A stretch of DNA of 24,000 bases from Candidatus Saccharimonadales bacterium (GCA_051005235.1 JBPCJO010000075.1:9350-33349); one strand, 5' to 3'; counted from the stretch's first letter, positions 1,732 to 22,095 are shown. Translations and numbers: made by a program. Notes: generated by a model not told the origin, from the letters alone.

Positions 1732-2313
1732 ATGAAGAAATTACTACAAGCATCAGCGACAGCAGTAGCTGGCGTAGCATTAAGCGTCGGCATGGTGTCG
1801 GCACACAGCTCAATCGGCACTACAGGGCCAGACTCTGACAACACAGTTAGAACATCTGTTGTAGAGCACGTAGACGTCGATAACGACAACAACGTTAACG
1901 CATCTGCAAACAACAATCAGCACGCTGAATCAGGTGACGCCAAAAGCAACCACAACACTGAAGCCGGCGGCGCTGAAAGCGGTGACGCAAGAAACGACAG
2001 CAACATGTCTGCTTCATTAGACATCAGCAACTCATCTTCAAACGCTGTATCTAGCGGCATCGGCGGCGCGGGCTCAATGGGTGGCGGTTCAATCGACAAG
2101 ACCGGTCCAGACTCTAACAACCGTATCGAAAGCACCTACCGTAGCAACGTTGAAGTCAGCAACAACAACAACTTGAGTGTAACGAGCAACAACAACCAAA
2201 CTGCTCGTAGCGGCGATGCAACAGTTAGTGGCAACACCGAAGGCGGCACAGCCCGTACTGGTGACGCTTCAAACTCAAGCAGCACCAGCTTCAGCCTTTC
2301 AGTAAAGAACTAG
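1732..2313 (+). CDS. Short secreted Asn/Ser/Gly-rich repeat protein (two TGPDSxN...SGDA...NTEgGxAxxGDA modules); function unknown
   Basis: 193-aa ORF with GAAAGG 11 nt upstream of the ATG. The signal peptide is MKKLLQASATAVAGVALSVGMVSAHS. Two internal modules begin TTGPDSDN and KTGPDSNN. They contain AESGDAKSNHNTEAGGAESGDA and ARSGDATVSGNTEGGTARTGDA. The same modules occur in the next gene. Confidence 0.8.
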   Translation: MKKLLQASATAVAGVALSVGMVSAHSSIGTTGPDSDNTVRTSVVEHVDVDNDNNVNASANNNQHAESGDAKSNHNTEAGGAESGDARNDSNMSASLDISNSSSNAVSSGIGGAGSMGGGSIDKTGPDSNNRIESTYRSNVEVSNNNNLSVTSNNNQTARSGDATVSGNTEGGTARTGDASNSSSTSFSLSVKN

Positions 2314-2368
2314 TACCCCTAGTTACTACTGTTAAGCTAGTCCACTGTACATAGTGGTACCGGGGTTA

Positions 2369-2394
2369 GGGGAGGCAGCAAAGGCTGCTTCCCC
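2369..2394 (+). terminator. Strong hairpin between the two repeat-protein genes (possible attenuating terminator)
   Basis: GGGGAGGCAGC-AAAG-GCTGCTTCCCC forms an 11-bp stem with one G.U and a 4-nt loop, 56 nt after the stop. The downstream U-tract is weak (GCTCCACTTT), so efficiency is uncertain. Confidence 0.4.
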
Positions 2395-2465
2395 GCTCCA
2401 CTTTAATCCTTATTCTTACGTTCTTAAGCCAATCATTAAGCACCGGCCGGTAGAAAGCAAAACTC

Positions 2466-4637
2466 ATGCCACTAAAGACAATTCTTCGTAACTCAGTATG
2501 TTCCATGCTCGTTGTACTCCAGGTGGCCGCCTTCCCTGCCCTGGTTATCGCACAAGAAGTTGATCCAGCATCATCTAACGTTGCACCAGCTGATTCCGGA
2601 TCAGTTCCTACTTCTCCGCCGCCAGCTCCGGCACAGGAGCCAGCACCTGCGCCAACGCCCGCTCCGGCTCCGCAGCCAGCAGCCGCGCCTACAACGGCAG
2701 CAAGCACTACCGGGCCAACTTCGCCGACTGGTGCCGACTCTGATACGTACACTAAAAATGCCGACGGATCTTGGTCAAACAGCCGCTATACCTGGGATCC
2801 AGCGACTGGTCAGACACGGCCAAACACTCCTCCAAGCTACAGCTATAACCCAAACACCAAAATGTGGGACACTACTAAATATGTCTACAGCCCGGAACAA
2901 GGTAAATATATAGCCAACGTCCAGTCAACTGCCAGCAACCCCCTCAGCCTAAACGCAGCGGGTTCATCCCAGCCTAATGGCTTACGCGTCGGTTCTAGCC
3001 CGCTTATTGCCGGTGGCCCGGCCAGTTTTGGCATTAATAATACCGGCCCCGGTTCCAACAATTCAATTAACTCCGGTTCAAATACCAACGGTACCTTTGA
3101 CCTCTTCTTTAACGGATCGATTAGCAACAATATATCCTCGAACGCGACTTCGGGTAACGCGTTAGTTCAAGGCAATACTATAGGCGGCGATGCCCTAAGC
3201 GGTGATGCCAGCGCGATTGCCAACTTGCTTAACATGCTGCAGTCGTCGTGGATTGGCAGCTCCGAAATTGCCAGCTTTATTAGTAATATTGATGGAAACG
3301 TTTACGGCGATTTAGTGATAGACCCGAATAACCTGCCGTACGCGGTTGGCTCCCAAAACAGCGATATAGACGTAAATGTCAGTAACAACGGCGTAATTGA
3401 TAATAACGTGGACTTGGTCGCCCGCTCTGGCAGCGCGACGGTTAACGGCAACACCGAGGCCGGCGACGCAACTTCGGGCAATGCCCAGGCCATAGCCAAT
3501 ATTATCAACCTGATTAACTCTTCTATTAATGCCGGCAGTTCATTCCTTGGTATGATTAACATCAACGGTAACTTTAACGGTGATATCTTGTTGCCTCTCG
3601 GCATGCTAGACGCTTTAATCTCGAATACCGGCTCTAACTCTACCAATACGATTGGCGGCGGCACCGCTACTTCGGACACGGATATTAACAGCACAACTAA
3701 CCGTACTATTAATAACAATGTAAATAGTACCGCCGGCAGCGGCAACGCGCTCATCAGCAGCAACACCGAGGCTGGCAGCGCCACCACCGGCCAGGCTGGC
3801 ACCAGCGTTAACACGCAGAATATTGTCGGCCAGAATATTACCGGCAAGAACGGTATATTGGTCTTCGTAAATGTACTCGGCCAATGGATAGGCATGGTGG
3901 TTGGCCCGGCACAGACGACAGCTACTATAACCAACACTGGTCCGGACTCCAGCAATGTAATTGGCGGCGGCGACAGTAACCGATCACTCTCTGTTAACGC
4001 TACCGAGAATAGCCTGATAAACAACAACATTAACGTTGTTGCCGAAAGCGGCGACGCGACCGTTAGCAAAAACACCTCGGCCGGCGACGCTACTACAGGT
4101 AACGCTCAGACCAGCGTTAATCTGGTAAATATAATTGGCAGCAACATCAATTTCAGCGACTTCTTCGGTGTTCTCTTTATCAATGTCTTTGGCAACTGGT
4201 TCGGTAGCTTCGGCGCCGATACGGCCAACGGTGGTTTTAGCCAAACGCCGGCGCAAGGCCAGGGCGGCATGGGCAGCGGTTCCAATAATAACCAACCTGC
4301 CGCTGCGCCAAATGGCGGGCCAGGCAACGGCTTTGGTGGCCAGGTCTTCGGTTTCGTTGCCCGTAACTTCGGTCAGGGTAGCGGCTCGGTCGCCCAAACT
4401 GCGGCAACTAACGGCCAGCCAGCCGCTCAAAATACAACTGTCTTTGGTGGTAACACAACACCAACCAACTCCGGTGGTGGCGCAGCTTCGGGAACTAGTA
4501 CGGCAAGTGTTAGCAGCCCGCAGATGAACTGGTGGATGATCGCCGGTTTCATCGGTTTCATCACTACTATCCTCGTCTTGGTTAGTGAATACTTCTCTAC
4601 CTTCCGTCGCAGTGCTGCCGAACGCCTAAACGTCTAG
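2466..4637 (+). CDS. Long cell-surface repeat protein: signal peptide, Pro/Ala linker, W/Y-rich segment, four SGxA...NTxAGxAxxGxA modules, Gly/Asn/Gln-rich tail and C-terminal TM anchor
   Basis: 723-aa ORF. N-terminus: MPLKTILRNSVCSMLVVLQVAAFPALVIAQE. Linker: PPPAPAQEPAPAPTPAPAPQPAAAP. The modules are ATSGNALVQGNTIGGDALSGDASAIANLLN, ARSGSATVNGNTEAGDATSGNAQAIANIIN, AGSGNALISSNTEAGSATTGQAGTSVN and AESGDATVSKNTSAGDATTGNAQTSVN. Module starts are NTGPGSNN, NTGSNSTN and NTGPDSSN. The C-terminus is WWMIAGFIGFITTILVLVSEYF followed by RR. There is no LPXTG motif. Confidence 0.85.
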   Translation: MPLKTILRNSVCSMLVVLQVAAFPALVIAQEVDPASSNVAPADSGSVPTSPPPAPAQEPAPAPTPAPAPQPAAAPTTAASTTGPTSPTGADSDTYTKNADGSWSNSRYTWDPATGQTRPNTPPSYSYNPNTKMWDTTKYVYSPEQGKYIANVQSTASNPLSLNAAGSSQPNGLRVGSSPLIAGGPASFGINNTGPGSNNSINSGSNTNGTFDLFFNGSISNNISSNATSGNALVQGNTIGGDALSGDASAIANLLNMLQSSWIGSSEIASFISNIDGNVYGDLVIDPNNLPYAVGSQNSDIDVNVSNNGVIDNNVDLVARSGSATVNGNTEAGDATSGNAQAIANIINLINSSINAGSSFLGMININGNFNGDILLPLGMLDALISNTGSNSTNTIGGGTATSDTDINSTTNRTINNNVNSTAGSGNALISSNTEAGSATTGQAGTSVNTQNIVGQNITGKNGILVFVNVLGQWIGMVVGPAQTTATITNTGPDSSNVIGGGDSNRSLSVNATENSLINNNINVVAESGDATVSKNTSAGDATTGNAQTSVNLVNIIGSNINFSDFFGVLFINVFGNWFGSFGADTANGGFSQTPAQGQGGMGSGSNNNQPAAAPNGGPGNGFGGQVFGFVARNFGQGSGSVAQTAATNGQPAAQNTTVFGGNTTPTNSGGGAASGTSTASVSSPQMNWWMIAGFIGFITTILVLVSEYFSTFRRSAAERLNV

Positions 4638-4684: not shown

Positions 4685-4760
4685 TGGTGACCCGGGAGGG
4701 AGTCGAACCCCCAACACCCACCTTAGGACGGTGGTGTTCTATCCATTGAACTACCGGGCC
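4685..4760 (-). tRNA. tRNA-Arg (anticodon CCU), CCA end encoded
   Basis: The minus strand reads GGCCCGGTAGTTCAATGGATAGAACACCACCGTCCTAAGGTGGGTGTTGGGGGTTCGACTCCCTCCCGGGTCACCA. The acceptor stem is 7 bp with one G.U. The anticodon stem is CCACC/GGTGG with loop GUCCUAA, giving anticodon CCU. The T-arm is GGGGG-TTCGACT-CCCTC. The terminal CCA is encoded. Folded by hand. Confidence 0.9.
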
Positions 4761-5577: not shown

Positions 5578-6501
5578 ATGGGTTCAGTGCGTGTTGACCC
5601 GGCTTTAACTGATTTTTTAGAATATCTTGAGATTGAACAAAACCGATCCCAAAAAACGATTGCGAACTACGACCATTACCTCAGACGATTGGTGGATTAT
5701 GCGGGTGATATTCTGATCAGCGACATAACTCCTGAGTTGGTGCGCAAATGGCGTCTATGGCTCAACAGGCTTGGCACCAACAACAGTGATGAACTGGGTA
5801 AGGCCACCCAAAACTACCACCTAATCGCGCTACGTAGTTTTCTTAAATATTGTGCCAAACGGGATATACCAGCCATGAGTGCTGATAAAATTGAGCTGGC
5901 GCGAACAAAACGTAAGCAAGTCACCTTTTTATCTGATGACGAGATGAAGCGGCTGCTCGAGCAGCCAGATACAAGTGATGAGGCTGGTCTGCGTGATCGT
6001 GCCATTTTAGAGCTGCTGTACTCTAGTGGGCTGCGCGTTTCTGAGCTGGTTGGGCTAAATAAGGATCATATTAACTTAAAGCGGCTCGAGTTTATGGTGC
6101 GCGGCAAAGGCCAAAAAGACCGACCGATTTTTATTAGCCCGGAGGCGGCTGGTTGGGTTATTCGCTATATGGAGGTTCGCCAAGACACCAGCCCTGCCCT
6201 ATTTGCGCGCGTCGGTGGCCAAAAAACCGCCGATACCAGTGGTAATTTTCTTAGATTAACCGCCCGCAGCGTGCAGCGGCTTGTGTCGCGCTACGCGCTG
6301 CTGGCTGGCATTACTAAAAAAGTTAGCCCGCACTCGCTCCGGCACTCGTTCGCCACCGATTTACTGATGAATGGTGCCGACTTACGCAGCGTGCAGGTCA
6401 TGCTCGGCCACAGTAACATCGCGACTACCCAGATTTATACTCATGTGACCGACCCTCACCTTAAGAAGGTGCATGAGGAGTTTCACCGCAAAGCCGGTTA
6501 G
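5578..6501 (+). CDS. Site-specific tyrosine recombinase, XerC/XerD family
   Basis: 307-aa ORF with AAGGAG 7 nt upstream of the ATG. The N-terminal SAM-like domain reads FLEYLEIEQNRSQKTIANYDHYLRRL. The catalytic domain has RDRAILELLYSSGLRVSEL, HSLRHSFATDLL and LGHSNIATTQIYTHV, which supply the R..HxxR..H..Y catalytic residues. Confidence 0.9.
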   Translation: MGSVRVDPALTDFLEYLEIEQNRSQKTIANYDHYLRRLVDYAGDILISDITPELVRKWRLWLNRLGTNNSDELGKATQNYHLIALRSFLKYCAKRDIPAMSADKIELARTKRKQVTFLSDDEMKRLLEQPDTSDEAGLRDRAILELLYSSGLRVSELVGLNKDHINLKRLEFMVRGKGQKDRPIFISPEAAGWVIRYMEVRQDTSPALFARVGGQKTADTSGNFLRLTARSVQRLVSRYALLAGITKKVSPHSLRHSFATDLLMNGADLRSVQVMLGHSNIATTQIYTHVTDPHLKKVHEEFHRKAG

Positions 6502-6513
6502 AGCTATAGCTAT

Positions 6514-7581
6514 CTAGCAGCCGCCTTGACTACTTAACGCCTCGATGGCGCCGGGGCCACCGTACGGACTTTGGTTGGTGTCTAAGCCGCTGCCAGGCCG
6601 GGCTTCGACTGGTGGGTGCAGGCTCAACCGCTTACAAACCTCGCCAGCGCCATCTATAACGTATGAAGGAAGTTCATAGTCATCGAAGTACGAAATACGG
6701 ACCTGAATGCGGCGTAGCACATCGCTTACCTTACCGGTTGAATCGACTTTTATTTGTGCCTGCGTAAACCGTGCGCCGTCGGTACTGGTAATTTTGACGG
6801 CGTTATCTTTAAAGAGTGAGCGAATATGTAAGTATGAGTTAGCCGGCAGATTGGTAATGGTCGCCTTACAGCGAGCCTCTGGCGAACCCGAACACGTAAC
6901 CGGAATTATCTTGCCTTGGTCGGCGGCCCCTTTGTCGTTGGTGTCGTGAGCTTTATACGCAACCGATCCGCCGCCGCTAGACGGTTTAAAAAATACTGTA
7001 AATGAGTTGTTATACAGCGCCTCGCGGCCTATCCCGCCGGTTGTAGTTAAAACGGTGGCTCGCATATAACCTGCATCGCAGCCACTGGCGCTAATAGTTT
7101 CGAGTGTCGGCGTAGCTCCGGGGCAGCTGCCAAACTGACCTTTATACAACTCGGAGGCGTTCCACTCGAGCTTGACGCCGGGCGCAAAGCCGCCAGCTGT
7201 GTTAAGTGGTATAATTTTACCGTTTTGCTTGGTGATCGACGTATATTCCAGGTCAGTCGGCTGGGCGTCGTATAAAACGCACGGTACCGACGTTGCAAGG
7301 TTATCGCCGCCCGAACTAATGTCCATCGGCGTACAGGTGGTAGCTTCTTTAGGAAAAGTAGAGTCTGCCCTAACTTTATTGACCGTCAAGTTAACACCTG
7401 ACTCGGCGGCGTAAAAGGCCTGGGTAGACAATTGCCTATCGAGTGATTGGCGATGTTCACGGCGGGTTATCTCGGAAAAGCCAATCACGATAAGAGTTAC
7501 CATAATCATGATAAAGACAGTTAGCATTACCGATACGATGCCAGATTGATTGTTAGCCAGTGGTGTTTGTTGTTTTTTCAT
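6514..7581 (-). CDS. PilX_N-domain pilus-associated protein (minor pilin/tip-complex candidate)
   Basis: 355-aa ORF, last gene of the pilin block. It has an N-terminal hydrophobic helix (GIVSVMLTVFIMIMVTLIVIGF) followed by LSTQAFYAAESGVN, which matches the PilX_N signature (QAFYAAEAG). It has several Cys residues and no G|FxxxE cleavage motif. Confidence 0.6.
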   Translation of the reverse strand: MKKQQTPLANNQSGIVSVMLTVFIMIMVTLIVIGFSEITRREHRQSLDRQLSTQAFYAAESGVNLTVNKVRADSTFPKEATTCTPMDISSGGDNLATSVPCVLYDAQPTDLEYTSITKQNGKIIPLNTAGGFAPGVKLEWNASELYKGQFGSCPGATPTLETISASGCDAGYMRATVLTTTGGIGREALYNNSFTVFFKPSSGGGSVAYKAHDTNDKGAADQGKIIPVTCSGSPEARCKATITNLPANSYLHIRSLFKDNAVKITSTDGARFTQAQIKVDSTGKVSDVLRRIQVRISYFDDYELPSYVIDGAGEVCKRLSLHPPVEARPGSGLDTNQSPYGGPGAIEALSSQGGC

Positions 7582-7620
7582 TATCGACGCTACTTATGCT
7601 TATTACTTAACATATTATAC

Positions 7621-8274
7621 TTATAATCGGTTCTTTACAAATGTGCTGATCTCGGCGGTAGCGCAAAATTGGCCGCCAAACCGTGACGATATACATACGT
7701 CACCGGGGCTAAGGTCAAAATCACCATACACAACCTTAACCTTTAATTCAGCTGGTTTGGCCGAAGGGTTTGAAGCGTCAACGTTAAATGTAACCAACCG
7801 CATATTGGCGCCTACCAGTTCGCGGCCGATCACAGCGCCTGGACCGACTTCTCGGTTAACATCGGTCTCGGGCGTGTTCATATTGGCAACAGCCGGGCAG
7901 CCAATGTTATCTTTAACACGGTCTACCCATAAGACGTGCCTACTCTGGTTGCCTGCCAGAGGTCCTTTTGGCGTTAATTGCATGTTAAGCACGTAAGAGT
8001 AGCGCACTAAGCCAACACAGACAACTCCGGCACCACTGTTAACTCTTTTATTGCCACCGGTCTGGATATTGCGCGAGATGTCTTCGATAATAGTCCGGCT
8101 GGTATCTTGAGTTTTAGAAACGATGACACCTTTGTAATAGACGCGGCCGATATACAAAACGCCAGAGGTAGCCAGTAACATCATAGAGGTAAAAATCGCG
8201 GTCGCGATTAACAGTTCGGCAATTGTAAAACCTTTTTGTGACTGGCTTATTCGCCTCATCGACGGTCGCGTCAT
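7621..8274 (-). CDS. Prepilin-type minor pilin (class III signal peptide)
   Basis: 217-aa ORF with QKG|FTIAELLIATAIFTSMMLLA (G-1, F+1, E+5). Its ATG overlaps the upstream stop as ATGA at 8271-8276. Confidence 0.78.
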   Translation of the reverse strand: MTRPSMRRISQSQKGFTIAELLIATAIFTSMMLLATSGVLYIGRVYYKGVIVSKTQDTSRTIIEDISRNIQTGGNKRVNSGAGVVCVGLVRYSYVLNMQLTPKGPLAGNQSRHVLWVDRVKDNIGCPAVANMNTPETDVNREVGPGAVIGRELVGANMRLVTFNVDASNPSAKPAELKVKVVYGDFDLSPGDVCISSRFGGQFCATAEISTFVKNRL

Positions 8275-8774
8275 CAGGCTAGCCTGCCTGCAGCCGCAAG
8301 GCCAAACTCGCTGGTTGAGGGCGGCGTTTGAGTAAACTTATTGCAAGCGATGTAATACGTGTTTAACTCCTCGGGGGTACTTTTAATGAGCGAGGTCCAG
8401 TTAACTTTAATTTTGAGCGGTTTATCTTGAGCGCAGGCTTTTGAGTTGGAAGGGTTCGGGTTCTCAATAGATACGTTGTATAAGCCATCTTCTACGCAGC
8501 CACCTGCGACCGCATCAACCTGGTCGGTCGCGGCGGCTTTAAGGCAAAAGGTTCCGGCTGGTAAAATGCCGTCAACCGTATAGCCGCGCAGCAATTCAAG
8601 CTGCGTTTCCATTACTTTGGTTGCACGGGAGCGCTCCTGTGAAGCCTGGTTGGTCGCCTGGTTATGATTAGTTAGCGTAAAGGCAGACAGCAACATAAAG
8701 CCGAGCGCCGCTAAGCAGATTAACACTTCTACGATTGTTTCTCCGCGCTGAGACGTTAAACGCATCATGCGCAA
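8274..8774 (-). CDS. Pilin-like protein with an atypical processing site (RG|ETIVEVLI)
   Basis: 166-aa ORF. It has a basic leader, Gly, E at +5 and a hydrophobic helix (VLICLAALGFMLLSAF), but Glu at +1. It overlaps both neighbours (10 nt upstream, ATGA downstream). Confidence 0.62.
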   Translation of the reverse strand: MRMMRLTSQRGETIVEVLICLAALGFMLLSAFTLTNHNQATNQASQERSRATKVMETQLELLRGYTVDGILPAGTFCLKAAATDQVDAVAGGCVEDGLYNVSIENPNPSNSKACAQDKPLKIKVNWTSLIKSTPEELNTYYIACNKFTQTPPSTSEFGLAAAGRLA

Positions 8775-9547
8775 TCTCCTGGCACAATGTCAGCCTCAGA
8801 TTTTATCTGAATGGCCGTACCTAGCTTGCCGCCAAACATAATAACTGCTTTTCGGCCGCCGCCCTTTTCTTGAACGCAAATTTTTACGCCGTCGGAAGCA
8901 TTATTGATACTGGTATTATTTAAACTGGTAGTAGCGATTTTGACAGATGCTATGCTAGAGGGTAAAGGGATGCCCGGCAAGCTAGCCAATACGGCACTGC
9001 CTGAATTATTAACCACACTGGCTTTGGTGGCAGACAGATGCTTGCCAAAACTTGGTAACACCGCGAATGCAGCGGTATCCCCAGATCCAACCGTAACTTT
9101 TGCAAATTCTAAGTCCGCGTACAGATTTTTCGATTCGGTATAGGTTGGCAGGTCAATCAGTCGCGGCGTGGCCTCGGCAATGTTTTTTACTTCTTTACCA
9201 GAGCCAGTCACTCGGTTGCCGACGATTGTGTAAATGTTGTACTTGTTTTTATCTCCGTCGGCTCCAAACTGAATGACTTTGCCGGCGAATACGCAAGCGG
9301 CACGCGTACCTTGGCCGCCAGAGCCAGTGCAACCAGCTACTGAATCTGTGCTCTCTGGGAAATAGCCGGCGTCGACATCGTTGATAACGTCTTGTATGGC
9401 CGTCTCGACGTCTTTTACGGACTTATTAAACTCCGTTTTTTGCTGCTGCCCACTAATAAGTGTCGAGACCGACACGAGTAATAGAGTGCTTATAGCGAGG
9501 TATATCATCACCTCGATTATGGTGAAGCCAGGTTGCCACCGATTCAT
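8765..9547 (-). CDS. Prepilin-type minor pilin
   Basis: 260-aa ORF with MNRWQPG|FTIIEVMIYLAISTLLLVSV, a canonical prepilin N-terminal cleavage/methylation motif. Confidence 0.78.
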   Translation of the reverse strand: MNRWQPGFTIIEVMIYLAISTLLLVSVSTLISGQQQKTEFNKSVKDVETAIQDVINDVDAGYFPESTDSVAGCTGSGGQGTRAACVFAGKVIQFGADGDKNKYNIYTIVGNRVTGSGKEVKNIAEATPRLIDLPTYTESKNLYADLEFAKVTVGSGDTAAFAVLPSFGKHLSATKASVVNNSGSAVLASLPGIPLPSSIASVKIATTSLNNTSINNASDGVKICVQEKGGGRKAVIMFGGKLGTAIQIKSEADIVPGDCA

Positions 9548-9554
9548 AGCTAAA

Positions 9555-10382
9555 TTATAGCATAAGCACCGTTAAGTACCAGCTAGTAATACTGCTGCCA
9601 AATAGCACAGTGATAATACAACCTGCTATTAAAAACGGTCCAAACGGTATATGGCTGGTACGGTTGGCCTTTTTAGTGGCCAGTAACGGTAATATAAACA
9701 GAGTACCCAGAGATGAAGCCACAAATAGCATCAGAAAAGCGTTGGCCGGATCCGCCGCCAGCGCACCAATTAAGAAGCCGAGTTTAACGTCGCCGCCGCC
9801 AATCCAACGACCGCGCGACATCTGGAACAACAGGTAAAAGATGCCGCCGCCAATAAGCACTCCTGCGCCCGCGCCGAGCAAGGTTATAAAGCTGGCAGTC
9901 TCCAGCCCGCGGGCCAAAACATACACCGCGGCCAGGCCGTAAAGCGGAAATATAAGCCGGTTTGGTAATAACATCCAGCGAATATCATAGACAACCAACG
10001 CTATCAAGCCTATCAGGCAGGCCAGCCAGGCACCAAAAGCCAGTACTTCCCAGCCAGCGATATCGCGCGGCCAGAATATATAACTGATCACAAATAAAGT
10101 GGCCATCAGTGCCTCTACCAACGGATACTGCCAACTGATGGGCTTTTTACAGTATCGACACTTTCCGCCCAAGCCCAGCCAGCTAATTACCGGCACTAGG
10201 TCCATCGGACTAAGCACATGCTTGCAGTGTACGCACATCGAACGCCCATGCGCCAACGACAGCTCCGTTTTAGAGGCAATACGATTGGCTTTTGGCTTTG
10301 ATTGCTCGCGCAAGCGCCACACCAGCGCATTCACGAAGCTTCCGAAGCACAAACCCAGCAATACGAGCGCGATAATAATCAT
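9555..10382 (-). CDS. pilD: Prepilin peptidase / N-methyltransferase (A24 family)
   Basis: 275-aa polytopic ORF. It starts LGLCFGSFVNALVWRL, then has the Cys-pair region CVHCKHVLSPMDLVPVISW..GKCRYCKKPISWQYPLVE. A GGGDVKL aspartyl motif lies later in the protein. Confidence 0.9.
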   Translation of the reverse strand: MIIIALVLLGLCFGSFVNALVWRLREQSKPKANRIASKTELSLAHGRSMCVHCKHVLSPMDLVPVISWLGLGGKCRYCKKPISWQYPLVEALMATLFVISYIFWPRDIAGWEVLAFGAWLACLIGLIALVVYDIRWMLLPNRLIFPLYGLAAVYVLARGLETASFITLLGAGAGVLIGGGIFYLLFQMSRGRWIGGGDVKLGFLIGALAADPANAFLMLFVASSLGTLFILPLLATKKANRTSHIPFGPFLIAGCIITVLFGSSITSWYLTVLML

Positions 10383-10397
10383 TATGCTTAGCTTACC

Positions 10398-10429
10398 ATA
10401 AAAAGAAAAGAACCCCTTGGAAGGGGCTC
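10398..10429 (-). terminator. Intrinsic terminator downstream of the major pilin gene
   Basis: The minus strand reads GAGCCCC-TTCCAA-GGGGTTC followed by TTTTCTTTTTAT. It lies about 35 nt after the pilA stop and 16 nt before the pilD start. Confidence 0.5.
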
Positions 10430-10462
10430 TTTTAATGCCTAAGGCTAGTTTTTAGCTTAGGA

Positions 10463-10903
10463 TTAGCTACCTACGCAACGATCAGTGTCGGCACCGGTAG
10501 TTTCGATTTTATAGGTAATCGTAAATGAGCGAGGCGCACCTGCGACAGCGACTGCACCGGCGGTATCACACTTTTTACCGGTCTCGAGGAACATACTACC
10601 GGTGGTAGCAGAGCCGGCTGTAACCAACTGCTGGTTATTCGCGATGGTGACGTACTTAGTAAGTTCGGCCTCCGTCAAGCTGTTGCACTTAGGTAGCTGG
10701 CCGTTATTATTACCAAGGCACTCATTTACCGCTGATGCTGTGCGTGCCGCGTCAGCAGTACGCTGTGTGTTACGGCTGTTACGTTGCAGTGCGGGAACGG
10801 CCAAAAAGACGATGACCATAATCAAACCGGCGATTGCCAGCACGATCAGGACTTCGATGATTGTAAAGCCTTTTTCATTTTTCTTTAATACTGATGTTTT
10901 CAT
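10463..10903 (-). CDS. pilA: Major type IV pilin
   Basis: 146-aa ORF with KG|FTIIEVLIVLAIAGLIMVIVFLAVPAL. It has two Cys pairs, including a C-terminal pair (KKC...DRC) typical of a D-region disulfide. It has its own candidate promoter and terminator, and an AGGGGG ribosome-binding site. Confidence 0.85.
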   Translation of the reverse strand: MKTSVLKKNEKGFTIIEVLIVLAIAGLIMVIVFLAVPALQRNSRNTQRTADAARTASAVNECLGNNNGQLPKCNSLTEAELTKYVTIANNQQLVTAGSATTGSMFLETGKKCDTAGAVAVAGAPRSFTITYKIETTGADTDRCVGS

Positions 10904-10951
10904 ATCTTCTGTGCCCCCTAGAAAGCGGTTTTATTAATACTTATGGTTATA

Positions 10952-10980
10952 AATATAGTTGAAGACGTTTAGAAGTGCAA
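10952..10980 (-). promoter_or_regulatory. Sigma-70-like promoter for pilA (TTGCAC-17 nt-TATATT)
   Basis: The complement of 10975-10980 is TTGCAC and the complement of 10952-10957 is TATATT, with an exact 17-nt spacer. An A-tract lies upstream. The site is about 45 nt upstream of the pilA ATG. Confidence 0.45.
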
Positions 10981-10999
10981 CTTTTTTGTGAACGACACT

Positions 11000-12220
11000 C
11001 TAGCTGATAACATTTGTGCCCGCTAATCCATAAATTGGCAGTAGTACCGCGGCCACGATAATAAAGGCGACAACACCGAGAATGACCATTAGTAATGGCT
11101 CAATAATGGTACTAATTGTTTTAATCTGATTATCAACTTCTTTTTCGTAGTAATCGGCGGTTTTTTCGAGCATATCCTCGAGGGCGCCAGACTGTTCACC
11201 GATGCGAAGCATATTGGGGACTAATGGCAAAAAGTTCGGGTCACCCTGTAGAGAGTCAGCGATTGATTTACCGCCCTTAATCTTCTCGATGGCACCATGG
11301 ATTGATTTTTCGATATGGACGTTGCTAATAGCCTTACCAACGATCTCGAGCATCTGGATCAGCGGAATGCCGCTAGCTACCAGCGTGGTACCGGTTCGAG
11401 CAAAACGAGCCATGTATAATTTCATAAACAGTGGGCCTAGCGGCCAGGCGCGCATCTTAAGACGGTCGATCAATAATTTTCCAGGACCGGTGCGGGCATA
11501 GCGGCTGGCCGCAATCGTCAAAAATACAATAATACCAATAAAGAAATACCAGTAGTCGGTCGCAAAATGCGATAATGCCAGTAACGCCCTAGTGATAAAC
11601 GGCAAGTTTGCACCTGGTAACTCTTTATAGATTGCTTCAACCTGCGGCAACACTTTGATCAGCATAAAGCCTAGTACGGCGATCATGACAATAATGACGA
11701 TAATCGGGTAAGCCAGAGCACCTTTAACTTTACTCATAATTTCGGCGTCTTTTTCTTGTTGTAAGGCAATCCGGAACAAGGCGGCGTCAAGTGTACCCGA
11801 CACCTCACCAGCGGCGATTAGGCTTATGTACACTTCGCTAAACACTTTTGGATGTTTGGCCAGGGCTACAGAAAAGGCCGAGCCGCCCTCGATATCGGCG
11901 ATAATCTGGCCAATAACCACCCGAAAGGCCTTATTGGTTGTTTGATCGTTGACGTTACGTAAGCTTTGCACTAACGGTAAGCCGGCGTTAATTAGGGTCG
12001 ACATCTGCCGCGAGAAAATAATGCGGTCTTTAACGGAAATGCGATTGGTAAACTTGGAAAATATATTTAACGACTTTGTATCGGCTAAGACAATATCGAG
12101 TGGTGCTAAGCCCTCGCTTTTAATGAGCTTGGCGGCCGAAGCTTCGCTATCGGCCTGCAATGAAGACTTAACTTTTTGGCCACTGGCCGGATCTCTGGCG
12201 ACGTAATTATAGGTTAACAT
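11000..12220 (-). CDS. pilC: Type IV pilus platform protein (GspF/PilC family)
   Basis: 406-aa ORF with two T2SSF repeats (FSRQMSTLINAGLPLVQSL and ARFARTGTTLVASGIPLIQML) and three TM segments. Confidence 0.92.
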   Translation of the reverse strand: MLTYNYVARDPASGQKVKSSLQADSEASAAKLIKSEGLAPLDIVLADTKSLNIFSKFTNRISVKDRIIFSRQMSTLINAGLPLVQSLRNVNDQTTNKAFRVVIGQIIADIEGGSAFSVALAKHPKVFSEVYISLIAAGEVSGTLDAALFRIALQQEKDAEIMSKVKGALAYPIIVIIVMIAVLGFMLIKVLPQVEAIYKELPGANLPFITRALLALSHFATDYWYFFIGIIVFLTIAASRYARTGPGKLLIDRLKMRAWPLGPLFMKLYMARFARTGTTLVASGIPLIQMLEIVGKAISNVHIEKSIHGAIEKIKGGKSIADSLQGDPNFLPLVPNMLRIGEQSGALEDMLEKTADYYEKEVDNQIKTISTIIEPLLMVILGVVAFIIVAAVLLPIYGLAGTNVIS

Positions 12221-12223
12221 GGC

Positions 12224-13294
12224 TTATCCCCTCATCAACCTGTCTAGTTCGGTAATATCGACTGCCACAATCCGGGCTTCGTCGTAGGTGATAGTACCGG
12301 AATGTATAAGGTTAACCAGTGTTTTGTCCATTGATTGCATGCCGAATTCCCCGCCGGTTTGGATGACCGCGTCAAGCTGGTGGCTCTTGCCCTCGCGGAT
12401 AATATTGCGAACGGCCGGCGTGGCAATTAGAACTTCGGCTGAAGCGACCCGCCCGCCGCCAATCGTTGGAACTAGGCGCTGCGAACAAATAGCCATGAGA
12501 ATATTACTAAGCTGAGCCCGAATTTGCGGCTGCTGGTGTGGTGGAAAGACGTCAATCATACGGTCGATACTCTGGGCAGCACTGTTGGTGTGCAGCGTGG
12601 CAAAAACCAGGTGGCCGGTTTCGGCGATGGTAATGGCGGCCGAGATTGTTTCGAGGTCGCGCATTTCGCCCAGCAGCACAACATCTGGATCTTGGCGCAA
12701 GCTGCTACGCAGGGCGGCCGAGAATGAATACGTGTCATAGTGGACTTCGCGCTGTACAATGACCGATTTCAGGCTTTTGTGGGTAAACTCGATTGGGTCT
12801 TCGATAGTTACAATATGAACCGCTTTTTCGGTGTTAATTTTGTGCACTAAGGCTGCTAGCGTGGTAGATTTACCGGAGCCTGTAGGGCCAGTCACCAATA
12901 CAAGGCCACGCGGATAGTCGGCAAACTTACGAACAACCTCTGGCAAGCCCAGCTGCTCGGTTGACATAATTTCGTTTGGTATGAGGCGAAGCGCTGCCGC
13001 TAAGTTACCGCGCTCGTGGAATGCGTTAACCCGGAAGCGGCCTAAGGCACCGAAGGCAAAGCTAAAATCAAATTCTTTATCTTTAAGTAAAATCTGTTTT
13101 TGCTCATCGTCGAGAATCGCGAAGATCAACGACTCGACCATTTCGGCGTCTAGAGTATGGGCACCACTAACCGGAATCAGCGCGCCGTCGATGCGTAGCG
13201 TTGGCTGCAAGCCAACTTGAATATGCAAGTCAGATGCCTTTTTTTTGATTACCTCTTCGAGGAGTTGTTCGATTCGTATGCTTGGTGTTGCCAT
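12224..13294 (-). CDS. pilT: Type IV pilus retraction ATPase PilT
   Basis: 356 aa. Motifs are ASDLHI, Walker A GPTGSGKST, Walker B DVVLLGEMRD, His box GHLVFATLHT, and the PilT-specific AVRNIIREGK motif. Confidence 0.93.
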   Translation of the reverse strand: MATPSIRIEQLLEEVIKKKASDLHIQVGLQPTLRIDGALIPVSGAHTLDAEMVESLIFAILDDEQKQILLKDKEFDFSFAFGALGRFRVNAFHERGNLAAALRLIPNEIMSTEQLGLPEVVRKFADYPRGLVLVTGPTGSGKSTTLAALVHKINTEKAVHIVTIEDPIEFTHKSLKSVIVQREVHYDTYSFSAALRSSLRQDPDVVLLGEMRDLETISAAITIAETGHLVFATLHTNSAAQSIDRMIDVFPPHQQPQIRAQLSNILMAICSQRLVPTIGGGRVASAEVLIATPAVRNIIREGKSHQLDAVIQTGGEFGMQSMDKTLVNLIHSGTITYDEARIVAVDITELDRLMRG

Positions 13295-13314
13295 TTTAGT
13301 TACCTAATTTATTG

Positions 13315-15102
13315 TTATGCGCTGTCGGCTGACGCTACGCGGTTAATTTCGTCTACTGTAGTTAGTCCTGCTAAGGCTTTAAAGTAACCGTCTTGTCGCA
13401 TGGTGATCATGCCTTGTGTTCGGGCTGTCCGCTCAATTTCACTGCTGGTAGCGCGGCTAATTATAAGCTTCTGAATTGCTTCATCGACTTCAAACACTTC
13501 GTAAAGGCCCATACGACCCTTGTAACCACCGGGGGTTTCGCGTCCGTCTTCACCCTTAAATAAAGTATAAGCGTTTTGCTTAGTAAGTGGCAAGGTTTTG
13601 TAGCCAATGTCTTGCGCCCGGGCGGCGACTTCTTCGGCAGTGGCGGGTAGTAGATTACCTATATTATTCAAAATACCTTCGGTTTCGACGACTGATGATG
13701 CATACTCTTGCCGTGTGGTGTCAGCGATTTTGCGCACCAGTCGTTGGCCAATAACTGTTCGAACGGTAGATGCAATCAAAAACGGCTCAATGCCCATATC
13801 TAGCAAGCGGGGCAAAATACCGGCCGCACTGTTGGTGTGCAGCGTACTAAAGACCAGGTGGCCGGTTAGCGCAGCCTGGACGGCTAGCTGGGCCGTCTCT
13901 TTATCGCGGATTTCGCCAACCATGACGACGTCCGGATCTTGTCGTAAAATAGAGCGTAAGCCGGTAGCAAATGTTAAACCTACCTCCGGATTAACCTGAA
14001 TTTGGTTAATGCCGTCCATTTTGTACTCAACCGGGTCTTCTAGGGTGACGATATTTATGGACTCGTCCTTAATTTCTTGAATCAGTGCGTACAGCGAGGT
14101 AGATTTACCAGAGCCAGTTGGTCCCGAGGTTAAGATCATGCCATTGGTTTGCTTGATGCCCTTGCGGATCGTCCGCAAAGCCCGGCCGTGATAACCCATT
14201 TCTTCGAGTAGCAAGCTGGTGCCGGATTTATCGAGCAGACGAATAACTACTTGCTCACCCCATACAACTGGTGATATGGCAATACGCAGGTCAATCGCTT
14301 TACCAGTGACAGCGACCGTAAATTGGCCGTCCTGAGGTATTCGGTGCTCATCAATTTTTAGGTTACTCAAAATTTTAATACGAGAAATGAGCGGCGGCTC
14401 GGTCGACTTTGGAAGCTTCATAATTTCTTTAAGGACGCCGTCGATGCGGCAACGGATCTTTAGTTCTTTCTCGAGAGGTTCGATGTGTATATCGCTAGCC
14501 CGGTTTTTAGCGGCGTATTCTAAAATTGTTGACAGCGCCCTACTGATCGGCGAATCTTGGACAATTGTTTTAATTTCAGACTTAACCTCGACTGGTTGGT
14601 CAGTTTTTTCGCCCGGGTTAACGCTAATGCCGATGGCGGTGGCTACGTCGGCCTCAACGTCTTCGTCATACTGTGTAAGTACATGTCTAATGCCCTCTTC
14701 ACTGGCGGTATAAACTTTGAGGGTACGGCCAATCCGGTTCGCTAAAAAGTCGACAGCTTGCACATTGTCGGCATCAAGCATAGCCACCACCAGACGACTC
14801 TGGATTTGCCCCAGCGGCACAGCCATATAGCGCTCAGCTACATCTTTTGGCAGCAGGCGCAACACATCGCGCTCAATCCGTGCCTCGAGCAGGTTTACAT
14901 ACGGAACACCGTTAATTTCGGCCAGTAGTTTGGTTAATGTCTCGTTAGAGACGTGGCCATTTTCGAGTAATGTCGAAAAGTACGGAACGGCGGACTTTTC
15001 GGCATCAGCCTTTGCCAAATCCAACGCAGCCAGGCTAATTAAGCCTTGGCTAACAAGCTTTTGTTCAATTTTTTTTTGAACCTCAGGCGATAATATTGCC
15101 AT
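13315..15102 (-). CDS. pilB: Type IV pilus assembly ATPase (GspE/PilB family)
   Basis: 595 aa. It has an N-terminal T2SSE_N domain (LLPKDVAERYMAVPL). Other motifs are Walker A GPTGSGKST, DVVMVGEIRD, GHLVFSTLHT and GYKGRMGLYEV. Confidence 0.92.
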   Translation of the reverse strand: MAILSPEVQKKIEQKLVSQGLISLAALDLAKADAEKSAVPYFSTLLENGHVSNETLTKLLAEINGVPYVNLLEARIERDVLRLLPKDVAERYMAVPLGQIQSRLVVAMLDADNVQAVDFLANRIGRTLKVYTASEEGIRHVLTQYDEDVEADVATAIGISVNPGEKTDQPVEVKSEIKTIVQDSPISRALSTILEYAAKNRASDIHIEPLEKELKIRCRIDGVLKEIMKLPKSTEPPLISRIKILSNLKIDEHRIPQDGQFTVAVTGKAIDLRIAISPVVWGEQVVIRLLDKSGTSLLLEEMGYHGRALRTIRKGIKQTNGMILTSGPTGSGKSTSLYALIQEIKDESINIVTLEDPVEYKMDGINQIQVNPEVGLTFATGLRSILRQDPDVVMVGEIRDKETAQLAVQAALTGHLVFSTLHTNSAAGILPRLLDMGIEPFLIASTVRTVIGQRLVRKIADTTRQEYASSVVETEGILNNIGNLLPATAEEVAARAQDIGYKTLPLTKQNAYTLFKGEDGRETPGGYKGRMGLYEVFEVDEAIQKLIISRATSSEIERTARTQGMITMRQDGYFKALAGLTTVDEINRVASADSA

Positions 15103-15122
15103 AACAGGTAAGCCACTCTACC

Positions 15123-15359
15123 CTAAAAGGGAGAAGTATTACTCTCATCGCCAATTCTTATGAGTTTGGTAGGGTTAATGGCATTTGGGTTAAACACTTC
15201 CTTATCGGGAATCTTGAACTCACTGCTAATAGCCTCGACTTTTTCGGCTGTCTGTTGTTTGCTACCTTTTGAGACAAAGACCGTCTTAGTCATTATTACC
15301 GAGAATACGCCGCCAATAAAAATGACAATTATTATTAAGGCAATATCTTTTTGTTTCAT
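15123..15359 (-). CDS. Small single-pass membrane protein inside the pilus operon (unknown)
   Basis: 78-aa ORF with TM helix IALIIIVIFIGGVFSVIM. Its ATG overlaps the pilO stop as ATGA (15356-15359). It ends 20 nt before pilB. Confidence 0.55.
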   Translation of the reverse strand: MKQKDIALIIIVIFIGGVFSVIMTKTVFVSKGSKQQTAEKVEAISSEFKIPDKEVFNPNAINPTKLIRIGDESNTSPF

Positions 15360-16024
15360 CGAATTTGCTCCGTTTCAACCTTGAAGATCTTACTTGGTTG
15401 ATAAAAAGTTTTGGCGTTAATTGTTAGTTCCGGCTGCTCGCCTTGCTCGACTTTGAATGTCAAACTTTTAACTTGTATCGGGCGGATTGATCGTTCTAAC
15501 AGATTAACAGCCGAGCTGCCAGAAGTACCGGATATACCAATTTTTACAGAAAAAGGTAACTCGACGGGTTGCGGAATAGATATTTGTTGAGACTGCGCGA
15601 CTTCGTCGTCGGTACCAATGATTTCTTTGATCTGAAAACCGTTGTCCTTAAAGATCTTCTCGACGCTGGTGGTTAAGGCCGGAAAGTCATACTTACTTGG
15701 TAGCGCGTCTAACACTATTCGAGCATTATCGCCATCTTTATCACCTGTCCCGGCCGGATTGCCGCCTAAAATGTTAGCTACCGGATCATCGAATTGCTCA
15801 AAAGAAGTGTTGAGCTTTTTGTAGGCTTCGGCATTGGATTTAACTTGCTTAAGTGCAATCTGTTTTTTGCCAATAACCCGTGCCTGGTAGGCCCGTTGGT
15901 CAAGCAGACTTTTGCCGGCTACCATGCAAAAAGCAATTACAAACGCCGCCGCGCCGGAGGCGACCAAAATAGTAAGTTGGGCTTTATCGATTTCGATTCG
16001 TTTGGCTGATAGTTTTCTAGCCAT
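15356..16024 (-). CDS. pilO: PilO-like pilus assembly protein
   Basis: 222-aa bitopic ORF (TM helix LTILVASGAAAFVIAFCMVAG) with a coiled-coil segment and then LDALPSKYDFPAL. It sits directly after pilN. Confidence 0.68.
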   Translation of the reverse strand: MARKLSAKRIEIDKAQLTILVASGAAAFVIAFCMVAGKSLLDQRAYQARVIGKKQIALKQVKSNAEAYKKLNTSFEQFDDPVANILGGNPAGTGDKDGDNARIVLDALPSKYDFPALTTSVEKIFKDNGFQIKEIIGTDDEVAQSQQISIPQPVELPFSVKIGISGTSGSSAVNLLERSIRPIQVKSLTFKVEQGEQPELTINAKTFYQPSKIFKVETEQIR

Positions 16025-16026
16025 GA

Positions 16027-21994: not shown

Positions 21995-22024
21995 TTCAAT
22001 GATAGACCATTTTAAAAATTATGA

Positions 22025-22057: not shown

Positions 22058-22095
22058 AATCCAATTAAAAATAGTTTGACATATTAATCATATGA

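Follow-up and report, generated by a model that had tools for sequence, protein, structure and literature searches.

Two adjacent plus-strand genes in a 24-kb stretch of DNA (the window) from Candidatus Saccharimonadales, an ultra-small, uncultivated bacterium, encode a short and a long protein that share one repeated module. In the reading that we tentatively prefer, the pair are cell-surface components of Saccharibacteria, which belong to the monoderm Patescibacteria, and anchored paralogues tether a secreted one through association of their modules. Judged from sequence, both proteins are exported paralogues, of which the long one is anchored in the membrane. All paralogues carry one lineage-specific module, modelled as an elongated three-stranded antiparallel beta-meander. 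The long protein would leave the cell by Sec export and then be retained in the membrane by its C-terminal helix; its disordered spacer of ~105 residues would traverse the wall, its four modules would form a stalk, and an aromatic hairpin domain would lie outermost. The short protein would be the unanchored two-module paralogue, devoid of the hydrophobic strand that follows each long-protein module. Beta-sheet contacts between its modules and those of anchored partners could hold it at the surface; the partners would be the long protein together with the sortase-anchored protein of one module that many relatives possess. The assembled paralogues may build a coat or short fibrils on the surface, and an intergenic stem-loop might allow the upstream short gene to be made in excess over the long gene. 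We infer surface exposure, the physical association of the short and long proteins with its stoichiometry, and whatever part they may play in contact with the host.

The two genes and their products

The features of the locus, with the basis of each in brackets, are as follows.

1732–2313, plus strand: short gene, encoding a 193-aa secreted two-module protein (ORF, alignments A2 and A3)
1813–2034, plus strand: module 1 of the short protein, residues 28–101 (motif positions, alignment A4, couplings)
2092–2310, plus strand: module 2 of the short protein, residues 121–193, C-terminus ...SFSLSVKN (motif, alignments)
2369–2394, plus strand: GC-rich intergenic stem-loop, GGGGAGGCAGC-AAAG-GCTGCTTCCCC (RNA fold, comparison with relatives)
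2466–4637, plus strand: long gene, encoding a four-module type-I membrane protein of 723 aa (ORF, alignment A1, AlphaFold model)
2466–2708, plus strand: signal peptide, residues 1–29 (cleavage between VIA and QE), and Pro/Ala/Thr-rich linker, residues 30–81 (translation)
2709–2933, plus strand: aromatic (W/Y) domain, residues 82–156 (conservation, AlphaFold hairpins)
3033–4148, plus strand: four long-protein modules at 3033–3251, 3312–3527, 3618–3839 and 3927–4148, residues 190–262, 283–354, 385–458 and 488–561 (motif positions, alignment A4, AlphaFold model)
3852–3899, plus strand: hydrophobic strand after module 3, residues ~463–478, ILVFVNVLGQWIGMVV (alignment, AlphaFold strand E457–470)
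4158–4214, plus strand: hydrophobic strand after module 4, residues ~565–583, DFFGVLFINVFGNWFGSFG (alignment, AlphaFold strand E560–574)
4215–4529, plus strand: low-complexity spacer rich in G/N/Q/S/T/A, residues 584–688 (~105 residues; pLDDT 25–30)
4530–4637, plus strand: C-terminal TM helix, ~689–710, basic cytoplasmic tail FRRSAAERLNV and stop codon (AlphaFold helix, conservation)

Both open reading frames reported in the preliminary description were recovered, and their products are true paralogues: BLASTP of the short against the long protein yields several overlapping alignments (best E = 2e-11, 37% identity). The short protein had been portrayed as a signal peptide plus two modules, rich in Asn and Ser, and its translation agrees. 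The signal peptide comprises residues 1–24 (MKKLL...MVSA), with cleavage read between VSA and HS; Ser accounts for 19% and Asn for 14% of the protein, which has very few hydrophobic residues and is very hydrophilic. Its first module begins with TGPDSDN, followed by an Asn-rich strand and then by the strand-turn-strand AESGDA...NTEAGG...ESGDA. The database search returned at least 176 short-family relatives with a length of ~195 aa, and scans of the short protein against Pfam and NCBIfam gave no match. AlphaFold, run on the short protein alone with 118 sequences, produced no confident fold (pLDDT 44), a result compatible with a requirement for a partner.

The long family has more than 1280 database matches. 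Since the residues upstream of M14 are conserved in homologues, the 723-aa start is preferred over the database gene call, which begins at M14 (710 aa, P0001). From the N- to the C-terminus, the protein consists of a signal peptide, a Pro-rich linker, the aromatic hairpin domain, four modules, a spacer, a TM helix and a basic tail, which is the layout of a monoderm surface protein. AlphaFold places a helix at residues 2–22 and gives pLDDT below 50 for residues 24–82, and the linker differs in length between homologues. The aromatic domain is made of four tandem hairpin-like units of the pattern [YW]-x-[YW]-[ND]-P-x-T-G-x-W, with beta hairpins predicted by AlphaFold at residues 108–150. Across 24 homologues it has 17 invariant columns and a mean column identity of 70%, making it the best-conserved part of the long protein apart from the modules. 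Comparison with known binding domains returned no significant match, the similarity to OCRE and Kelch motifs falling below threshold, and the domain is a candidate ligand- or wall-binding tip.

The module cores of the long protein are modelled at pLDDT 82–91. The hydrophobic segments that follow modules 3 and 4 rank among the best-conserved stretches of the family. The motif after module 3 was the search pattern by which the relatives were found; its invariant residues are V466, F467, N469, V470, G472, W474 and G476, and those after module 4 are G568, L570, F571, I572, N573, V574, G576, W578, G580, F582 and G583. The strand after module 3 has no equivalent in the short protein. The spacer, weakly conserved and variable in length among homologues, is probably disordered and wall-spanning. 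Beyond it, AlphaFold predicts a helix at 689–722 (pLDDT 77–85), just before which N-W-W is conserved (NWW...G...L..ER in homologues). Direct reading of the C-terminus finds no LPXTG, and therefore the long protein of the window should stay membrane-bound; of the 80 long-family members scanned, one has an LPXTG-like tail. The parts listed beforehand are thus all present: a Pro/Ala linker, a W/Y segment, hydrophobic segments, a Gly/Asn/Gln tail and a TM anchor without LPXTG. Pfam and NCBIfam scans of the long protein gave no match.

The shared module and its predicted fold

The module spans ~73 residues. A scan with the motif A.[ST]G.A....NT..G.A..G.A reproduced the copy numbers given earlier: the short protein has it at residues 65 and 158, and the long one at 227, 319, 423 and 526. 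The TGP[DG]SxN start, said to precede most copies, stands before four of the six, namely both short modules (residues 31 and 124) and, in the long protein, modules 1 and 4 (residues 193 and 491). In module 3 of the long protein its place is taken by TGSNSTN (residue 388), and module 2 has no such start. Across ~2200 protein clusters the module occurs in 1, 2, 3, 4, 6 or 11 copies. Relatives with an organism name are all Patescibacteria, and the named relatives are all annotated as 'hypothetical'. The earlier failure to assign the repeat to a named family is borne out: the window proteins have no match in Pfam (E<=0.1), NCBIfam or PDB sequences, and Foldseek returned no structural analogue, its top row being the amyloid FapC at an insignificant E = 2.8. 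The lack of a structural analogue is a point against tethering by anchored paralogues.

Evolutionary couplings and AlphaFold's model of the long protein both point to a long antiparallel strand-turn-strand meander as the fold. Within the module, positions 28–45 couple with 54–71 in an antiparallel ladder (i+j = 97/99) with arms of ~18 residues. This ladder persists after subtraction of the conservation background and is present in short-only as well as long-only subsets. Every second residue of the strand-turn-strand unit couples across the arms, including polar pairs such as Q36-N61 and N32-V65, though couplings alone have no power to separate a hydrogen-bonded hairpin from a beta-arch. In the AlphaFold model of the long protein, the strands are 11–21 residues long, antiparallel and hydrogen-bonded within one chain, and the ladder agrees with its strands of 14–21 residues. 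Beta-solenoids consist of strands of 3–8 residues in stacked rungs, with one rung per repeat. The strand length and the ~18-residue ladder speak against a short-rung beta-solenoid; a beta-solenoid was the structure that had been suggested for checking. Strong couplings also link equivalent positions of the two short modules, in register at j-i = 93. These inter-module couplings are confounded by concerted evolution and not usable as evidence of stacking: two modules of the same protein share 54% identity and those of different proteins 43%, with an excess of codon identity.

Pairing, stem-loop and anchored paralogues in relatives

Eighty long-gene loci were scanned, three of which begin at or within ~100 nt of the long gene and hence carry no upstream information. 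In all the remaining loci (77/77), nearly all titled as Saccharibacteria/Saccharimonadia MAGs, the long gene is immediately preceded by a same-strand short paralogue, as the idea of a conserved short/long pair had anticipated. Adjacency and order are unchanged even though the relatives are only 38–64% identical. Short and long modules from the same genome are 32.1% identical and those from different genomes 30.0%; because this excess is marginal, there is no clear signal of co-evolution, which weighs against the tethering of one paralogue by the other.

The strong hairpin noted between the genes is indeed there: the stem has 11 pairs, including one G-U, closed by an AAAG loop, and is present in the MFE fold as well as in the centroid fold. 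It was not called by the terminator scan because it has no U tract, another point against the preferred reading. Comparable hairpins recur in 30 of 73 related intergenic regions, versus ~0.1% of shuffles and 0/73 coding controls, and the hairpin is weak or absent in over half of the relatives, which likewise weighs against that reading. On the short-gene transcript, the stem-loop may act as an attenuating terminator or stabilise the 3' end, and its recurrence would fit higher expression of the upstream gene.

Additionally, ~40% of relatives encode, next to a sortase gene, an LPXTG protein with a single module, which runs from a signal peptide through the module and a P/A/T spacer to LPXTG, a TM helix and a basic tail. 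The LPXTG signal is found in 20/34 additional paralogues, 0/76 short-family and 1/80 long-family members. The sortase, identified by Pfam PF04203 (NCBIfam sortase matches are weak), is located ~0.6–3 kb, usually ~1 kb, downstream of the long gene in 21 of the 49 loci with enough downstream sequence, and a GT2 glycosyltransferase is nearby in 16/80 loci. This paralogue next to a sortase strengthens the reading of the family as putative cell-surface proteins. In the 24-kb window itself, there is no sortase ORF, and the HMM scan finds only the two paralogues and no LPXTG one, which also counts against the preferred reading. With no C-terminal LPXTG in either protein and no sortase gene in the window, the window proteins were rejected as sortase substrates.

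A somewhat unlikely alternative is that the two proteins act independently and do not co-assemble. The long protein would then be a membrane-anchored adhesin whose aromatic domain binds host or wall glycan, and the short one a released matrix, decoy or host-directed factor, the genes being adjacent only through duplication and shared regulation. Such a role would suit the classic layout, in which a repeat stalk with a tip domain is joined through a spacer to an anchor, the high conservation of the aromatic domain and the near absence of excess same-genome similarity between short and long modules. Moreover, cultivated Saccharibacteria require several adhesins for epibiotic growth (PMC10633639). 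However, invariant adjacency and order at such low identity is a tighter linkage than expected from duplication alone, the occurrence of one module in three differently anchored versions suggests a common structure, and the aromatic domain lacks a significant match to known binding domains.

It is improbable that the proteins are instead structural components that organise the wall, such as spacers or rulers of a peptidoglycan-polysaccharide layer, binding mainly glycans and not each other. The GT2 glycosyltransferase and sortase frequently found nearby in relatives would accord with this, as would hydrophilic surfaces rich in Asn, Ser, Thr and Asp and aromatic repeats that resemble carbohydrate-binding hairpin repeats in pattern only. 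On the other hand, the Pfam matches include no recognised wall-binding domain, SLH, LysM and CW_binding all being absent, and the window has neither the GT2 glycosyltransferase nor the sortase.

Comparison with known surface systems

Tethering of a secreted subunit by anchored paralogues finds its nearest formal parallels in chaplins and curli. Chaplins assemble into amyloid fibres at the cell surface. As in the chaplins of Streptomyces (short secreted ChpD-H, long sortase-anchored ChpA-C), one small module is shared here by a short secreted and a longer, tethered multi-module protein, and relatives add a member anchored by sortase. Gene clustering and a monoderm cell are further points in common. 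The LPXTG/sortase paralogue therefore brings the short/anchored analogy closer than the preliminary description knew. However, the chaplin domain is hydrophobic and ~40 residues long, whereas the module here has ~73 residues and is very hydrophilic and, in the window proteins, Cys-free; long chaplins are sortase-anchored (LAXTG/LPXTG) and the long protein of the window is anchored by a TM helix. Membership in the chaplin family was rejected, as no Pfam chaplin domain is present in the window proteins (E<=0.1) or in 30 short homologues (E<=1).

With curli CsgA/CsgB (major subunit and nucleator), the pair has in common adjacent paralogues of repeated strand-turn-strand units, in which Ser, Asn, Gln, Gly and Ala are abundant. 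One paralogue is cell-associated and the other released; the strict adjacency is a formal resemblance only. The Curlin repeat has the signature S-x5-Q-x-G-x-G-N-x-A-x3-Q. No match to this repeat was found, and module profile A4, compared with E. coli CsgA by hhalign, gave a probability of 0.1% (E = 0.49), so homology to curli was discarded. Furthermore, the curli strand arms measure ~7–9 residues against ~18 here, where AlphaFold pairs them antiparallel within one chain, and curli depend on CsgG/E/F secretion genes and an outer membrane, whereas csgG, csgE and csgF are missing from the locus and the organism is monoderm. The 'anchor plus subunit' proposal is partly borne out: export, type-I anchoring, paralogy and strict pairing stand. 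Kinship with curli (no detectable homology) or chaplins (no domain) is not supported.

For these proteins to form a functional amyloid, with the short protein stacking its strand-turn-strand modules into cross-beta fibres and the four-module anchored paralogue nucleating them, is very doubtful. The secreted/anchored pairing that mirrors curli and chaplins, including the sortase-anchored member of relatives, points that way, along with a composition rich in Asn, Ser, Gly and Gln, the coupling of alternate residues across the strand arms, polar pairs included, the failure of AlphaFold to fold the short protein as a monomer and FapC as the top, though insignificant, Foldseek row. These are opposed by the negligible hhalign probability, the absence of Curlin and chaplin domains from the Pfam scan of the window proteins, arms modelled as intrachain hydrogen-bonded antiparallel strands, an in-register signal that arises at least partly from concerted evolution and the scarcity of hydrophobic residues in the short protein.

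LPXTG/sortase repeat-stalk proteins (MSCRAMM-type; SasG/Aap rods) share the part order of the long protein: signal peptide, distal domain, tandem beta-rich repeats, low-complexity spacer that spans the wall, C-terminal hydrophobic segment and basic tail. A true LPXTG paralogue with sortase occurs here in relatives, and the long protein of the window is without LPXTG. The searches gave nothing resembling G5, Big, Cna-B or any other known stalk domain, and these systems have no counterpart of the obligatory secreted paralogue. S-layer proteins anchored by SLH require a wall-binding domain, which Pfam and NCBIfam find in neither window protein. The Pam pili of Candidatus Mycosynbacter amalyticus are likewise a surface structure specific to the Candidate Phyla Radiation (CPR, the Patescibacteria) and assembled outside a monoderm cell, with Sec-exported paralogues and C-terminally TM-anchored partners (bioRxiv 10.64898/2026.03.03.709456). 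Their pilins are of 39–55 kDa, with two Ig-like domains, donor-strand exchange and PapD-like chaperones (bioRxiv 10.64898/2026.03.03.709456); compared by description only, the present proteins differ in being tandem-module proteins of 19 and 72 kDa with long hairpins and no chaperone-like gene adjacent to the pair.

A bolder proposal, which we consider unlikely, is that the short, long and, in relatives, LPXTG paralogues constitute a previously unrecognised, Patescibacteria-specific monoderm surface polymer, in which the secreted two-module subunit, without the hydrophobic strand that caps each long-protein module, polymerises on anchored templates. If true, the long beta-meanders of the subunits would associate edge-to-edge or stacked on the anchored template paralogues, and the resulting coat or fibrils could serve envelope integrity or host contact. 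Such a polymer would be a functional parallel to chaplins and curli, although its fold would be unrelated to theirs and it would have no secretion machinery of its own.

That the module is a divergent FecR periplasmic domain acting in trans-envelope signalling is barely credible: five of 30 short homologues match Pfam PF04773 (four re-scanned score 24.2–28.9 bits, cut-off 24), with matches spanning at most profile positions 4–56 of 97 and starting at or just ahead of the TGPDS motif, but the window proteins themselves do not match, PDB chains of FecR or PupR type are not reached by profiles A2 and A4 even at E = 10, the topology is reversed (N-terminal signal peptide, C-terminal anchor) with no cytoplasmic anti-sigma domain, and the organism is monoderm, with no sigma-factor gene, ECF sigma factor or TonB-dependent transducer in the window. 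The neighbours of the pair in the window are genes for a bPH-domain protein, a tRNA-Arg, NDK and a XerC-like recombinase, together with type IV pilus genes.

The short-long pair and its products

The window covers part of a Saccharibacteria (Patescibacteria/CPR) chromosome, and the two ORFs of the preliminary description, hereafter the short and the long gene, are present in it as described. They are accompanied by the following neighbours.

1732-2313, forward strand: short gene, 193 aa
2466-4637, forward strand: long gene, 723 aa
Upstream of the short gene, in divergent orientation: bPH-domain gene
4688-4760, reverse strand: tRNA-Arg(CCT), genuine (59.8 bits), 50 nt downstream of the long gene
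Downstream of the pair: NDK gene and XerC-like recombinase gene
6514-17813, reverse strand: type IV pilus cluster, beside the short-long pair

The best relatives of both proteins are found in MAGs titled Candidatus Saccharimonadia, Saccharimonadales or Saccharibacteria. The tRNA-Ser(GCT) that ARAGORN calls at 2625-2714 on the reverse strand, within the Pro/Ala-linker coding part of the long gene, has no Rfam match and so is probably false; a terminator-like site at 4718-4734 falls within tRNA-Arg and is not a terminator.

The two products are paralogues (best BLASTP E = 2e-11, with alignments in several registers) built on a common repeat unit of about 73 residues, termed here the module. The motif A.[ST]G.A....NT..G.A..G.A marks two modules in the short protein and four in the long protein, and five of these six copies are preceded by a start motif, either TGP[DG]SxN or, in long module 3, TGSNSTN. 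Both proteins are exported. The short protein consists of a typical Sec signal peptide (cleavage site VSA/HS) and two modules, and is rich in Ser (19%) and Asn (14%). In the long protein, the signal peptide (VIA/QE) is followed by a Pro/Ala/Thr linker, a conserved aromatic domain, four modules each trailed by a hydrophobic element, a low-complexity tail of about 105 residues, a C-terminal helix and a basic end. This order of parts is typical of a monoderm surface protein, and the protein has a C-terminal membrane anchor; no LPXTG is present. The aromatic domain (residues 82-156) contains four highly conserved [YW]x[YW][ND]PxTGxW units, and searches with it return nothing significant, the OCRE and Kelch-motif matches being sub-threshold. 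The preliminary description of the pair thus holds up in every particular.

This extends to the hairpin between the genes, which has an 11-bp GC-rich stem at 2369-2394 and is not called by a consensus terminator scan because it has no U tract. GC-rich hairpins of at least 10 bp occur in 30 of 73 related intergenic regions, as compared with about 0.1% of shuffles and none of 73 same-length coding pieces. Since the hairpin sequences vary among loci, it is the structure and not the sequence that recurs.

Pairing and associated genes in relatives

The long family comprises more than 1280 database matches, mostly of 650-750 aa and all unnamed, and the short family at least 176 matches of about 195 aa. 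In a survey of one genome per GTDB species, long-protein relatives were located in at least 200 stretches; 80 loci were fetched, and pairing was tested by HMM searches over all of their ORFs. The short paralogue lies immediately upstream of the long gene on the same strand in 75 loci, while in two others it is truncated by a contig edge (L005) or has a weaker score (L067). The sole loci without a short paralogue (L037, L052 and L061) begin at the long gene or at most about 100 nt from it. The recurrence of such pairs in related genomes, suggested for checking at the outset, is therefore borne out in every informative locus (77/77), with the same order and strand. Two separate short-long pairs occur on contigs of one MAG, CAZDTZ01 (loci L036 and L063), so that either the locus is duplicated or the bin is mixed.

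The gene cluster often comprises four or five genes, taking in a sortase and a glycosyltransferase, and the remaining neighbours of the pair are not conserved across loci. The type IV pilus cluster was considered as a conserved partner and rejected, as pilus genes are close by in just 2 of the 80 loci. In many relatives there is an additional paralogue, about 180-200 aa long. Its signal peptide is followed by a single module, a Pro/Ala/Thr spacer, LP[NEQAKSVD]TG, a hydrophobic stretch and a basic tail, and it is a canonical sortase substrate. It adjoins a sortase gene, identified by Pfam PF04203 in L001 and by weak NCBIfam sortase matches. Among the 49 loci with enough downstream sequence, 21 have a sortase about 0.6-3 kb, usually about 1 kb, downstream of the long gene. 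In the window, both the LPXTG paralogue and the sortase are missing, and the family HMM matches just the two known ORFs. The closest relative (L001/L002) carries GT2, sortase and LPXTG paralogue between xerC and a PilX-like gene (L002 9900-12400). The XerC-like and PilX-like genes of the window abut (6501-6514), so the sortase arm is either missing here or placed elsewhere in the genome.

The LPXTG paralogues of L001, L004, L015, L065 and L069 have several Cys on the flanks of the module, those of L001 and L004 being examples. The short protein of the window has no Cys and the long protein has one, within the signal peptide, which suggests a disulfide stabilisation particular to the wall-anchored form.

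Module fold, evolution and family

The AlphaFold model of the long protein has a mean pLDDT of 52, with module cores at 82-91 that are modelled as strands of 11-21 residues; the short protein reaches a pLDDT of 44 despite 118 sequences. Evolutionary couplings were computed over 1288 distinct modules. The raw mean-field DCA antidiagonal was discarded, as column shuffles give the same pattern (z about 3) from conservation alone, and for this reason the ladder was re-derived with background subtraction and in subfamilies. After subtraction, an antiparallel ladder (pairs 28-69/71, 30-67, 32-65, 34-63, 36-61, 38-59, 43-54 and 45-51/54) ranks first in DCA as well as in mutual information, and it is recovered separately in long-only and short-only modules. 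In the coupling picture, two AxSGDA half-sites stand opposite each other across the NTxGG tip, and the TGPDS start is coupled to this tip in the short family. Taken together, the ladder and the geometry of half-sites and tip point to an elongated strand-turn-strand module, probably a three-stranded meander whose arms are about 18 residues long. The beta-solenoid raised as a possibility in the preliminary description is not upheld in its short-rung form, given the long arms of the ladder and the length of the AlphaFold strands. Foldseek searches against the PDB gave no significant match, with only rows of E>1 for the long model and none for the short model; FapC, the top row of the long model (E = 2.8, probability 0.01), does not count as evidence.

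In full-length couplings of the short family, equivalent positions of modules 1 and 2 (j-i = 93) give by far the strongest signal. In-register stacking was rejected as their reading, since modules within a protein are too alike and share codons in excess. In an alignment of 190 proteins, module 1 and module 2 of a given short protein are 54% identical to each other vs 43% to modules of other species, and identical residues at equivalent positions share codons in 49.6% of cases vs 41.7% in controls. Concerted evolution of the internal repeat, to which these excesses point, explains at least part of the signal, and any repeat-period coupling analysis is confounded by it. The long family keeps the positional orthology of its modules (45% vs 39%), and short and long modules are barely more alike in the same genome (32.1%) than in different genomes (30.0%).

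The repeat had earlier been left without a named family, and the window proteins indeed match nothing in Pfam, NCBIfam or PDB sequences. Pfam scans of divergent and atypical multi-module relatives give no match, and no meaningful relative emerges from the PDB sequences, whether single sequences or the profiles A1 (long family), A2 (short family), A4 (module) and A5 are used as queries. All source names of relatives are 'hypothetical protein', and searches of the Saccharibacteria literature on sortase/LPXTG, S-layers, amyloid, cryo-ET and proteomics gave nothing on this module family. When scored against 1.84 billion representative proteins, the module profile A4 retrieves 2223 at E<=1e-3, and the matched proteins carry 3, 4, 5, 6 or 11 matched stretches. 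A divergent 11-module member (P0294) has relatives in Woykebacteria, Roizmanbacteria, Gottesmanbacteria and Staskawiczbacteria. This divergent branch, found in Microgenomates and Parcubacteria lineages, bears the signature NTGxNxASYNTGxGxVxTGDA in up to 11 copies, and some of its members have a dockerin domain (PF00404). As these relatives lie beyond Saccharibacteria, the module belongs to a Patescibacteria-wide, undescribed superfamily. Additionally, QHN42381.1, a 71.6 kDa hypothetical protein that ranks 29th by abundance in Candidatus Mycosynbacter amalyticus (genome CP045921; Supplementary Table 1, bioRxiv 10.64898/2026.03.03.709456), matches the long protein in size.

Possible surface assembly and further features of the window

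Saccharibacteria, like other Patescibacteria, live attached to host bacteria, and unannotated proteins make up almost the whole of their surfaces. The module is present in about 2200 protein clusters, all of them without name, domain model or structure. Among known systems, chaplins have the closest logic, with a short secreted and a long anchored form of one module; here, sortase involvement is seen in relatives. Curli are similar in their adjacent subunit and nucleator paralogues made of strand-turn-strand repeats, and LPXTG repeat-stalk proteins share the part order seen along the long protein. For each of the three, membership fails on the defining features tested, and curli homology was rejected (hhalign against CsgA, probability 0.1%). 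The Pam pili of CPR, made of Ig-like donor-strand-exchange pilins of 39-55 kDa (bioRxiv 10.64898/2026.03.03.709456), are a different system, judged by their description. What appears to be new here is an undescribed protein family and fold; the anchored-plus-secreted surface arrangement itself is familiar and not surprising.

One module occurs in a secreted form, in a membrane-anchored form and, among relatives, in a form anchored to the wall. The leading reading, with slightly less than an even chance, is that the anchored paralogues and the module-associated short protein co-assemble at the cell surface. Anchored paralogues would present modules there, the unanchored short protein would associate with them through its own modules, and the intergenic stem-loop would yield an excess of short transcript, an effect established for major-subunit genes of several pilus operons. 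Moreover, the short protein is without the hydrophobic strand that follows each long-protein module, so it may have an unsatisfied sheet edge or face, which would fit the failure of AlphaFold on the monomer. If the anchored and short forms do co-assemble, they would define a surface-polymer system new to science in a major lineage that is uncultivated, as well as a tractable target for genetics (feasible in competent Saccharibacteria), cryo-ET and a new domain family entry.

It is rather unlikely, yet the best of the alternatives, that the long protein is an independent adhesin and the short protein a released paralogue. The module and the aromatic tip domain would still be new candidate adhesin parts if there is no co-assembly; the strictly linked pair is a conserved lead in a poorly understood lineage. 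A role as glycan-directed wall organiser is improbable; a GT2 glycosyltransferase is often near the third paralogue and the sortase. Marginally more doubtful still is a true cross-beta amyloid, and the couplings alone cannot distinguish an H-bonded hairpin, which is AlphaFold's prediction, from a side-chain-packed beta-arch. FecR-like signalling is very improbable, and the FecR lead was rejected as partial and at odds with the topology: five short homologues match Pfam FecR (24.2-28.9 bits in the four re-scanned, cut-off 24), but over the first half of the profile alone, the proteins are oriented oppositely to FecR, the window proteins have no Pfam FecR match and the family profiles find no FecR-related PDB chain.

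Some further features of the window were observed. A 1369-aa ORF (17885-21994, reverse strand) heads the type IV pilus cluster and has an N-terminal TM segment; its sole match is SurA_N_3-like at residues 27-121, leaving more than 1200 residues unassigned. The stretch 21001-23000 is low in GC (0.36-0.40 vs about 0.49 elsewhere in the window) and includes an ORF at 22096-22812 without a Pfam match. In the AT-rich divergent region separating the bPH-domain gene from the short gene, a 13-nt repeat lies at 1397 and 1431, and an exact 15-nt direct repeat, CTTAATGTCGTATGT, is found at 1382-1396 and 1472-1486. The copies of the latter are 90 nt apart, with 0.04 matches expected by chance, and they may be a regulator binding site.
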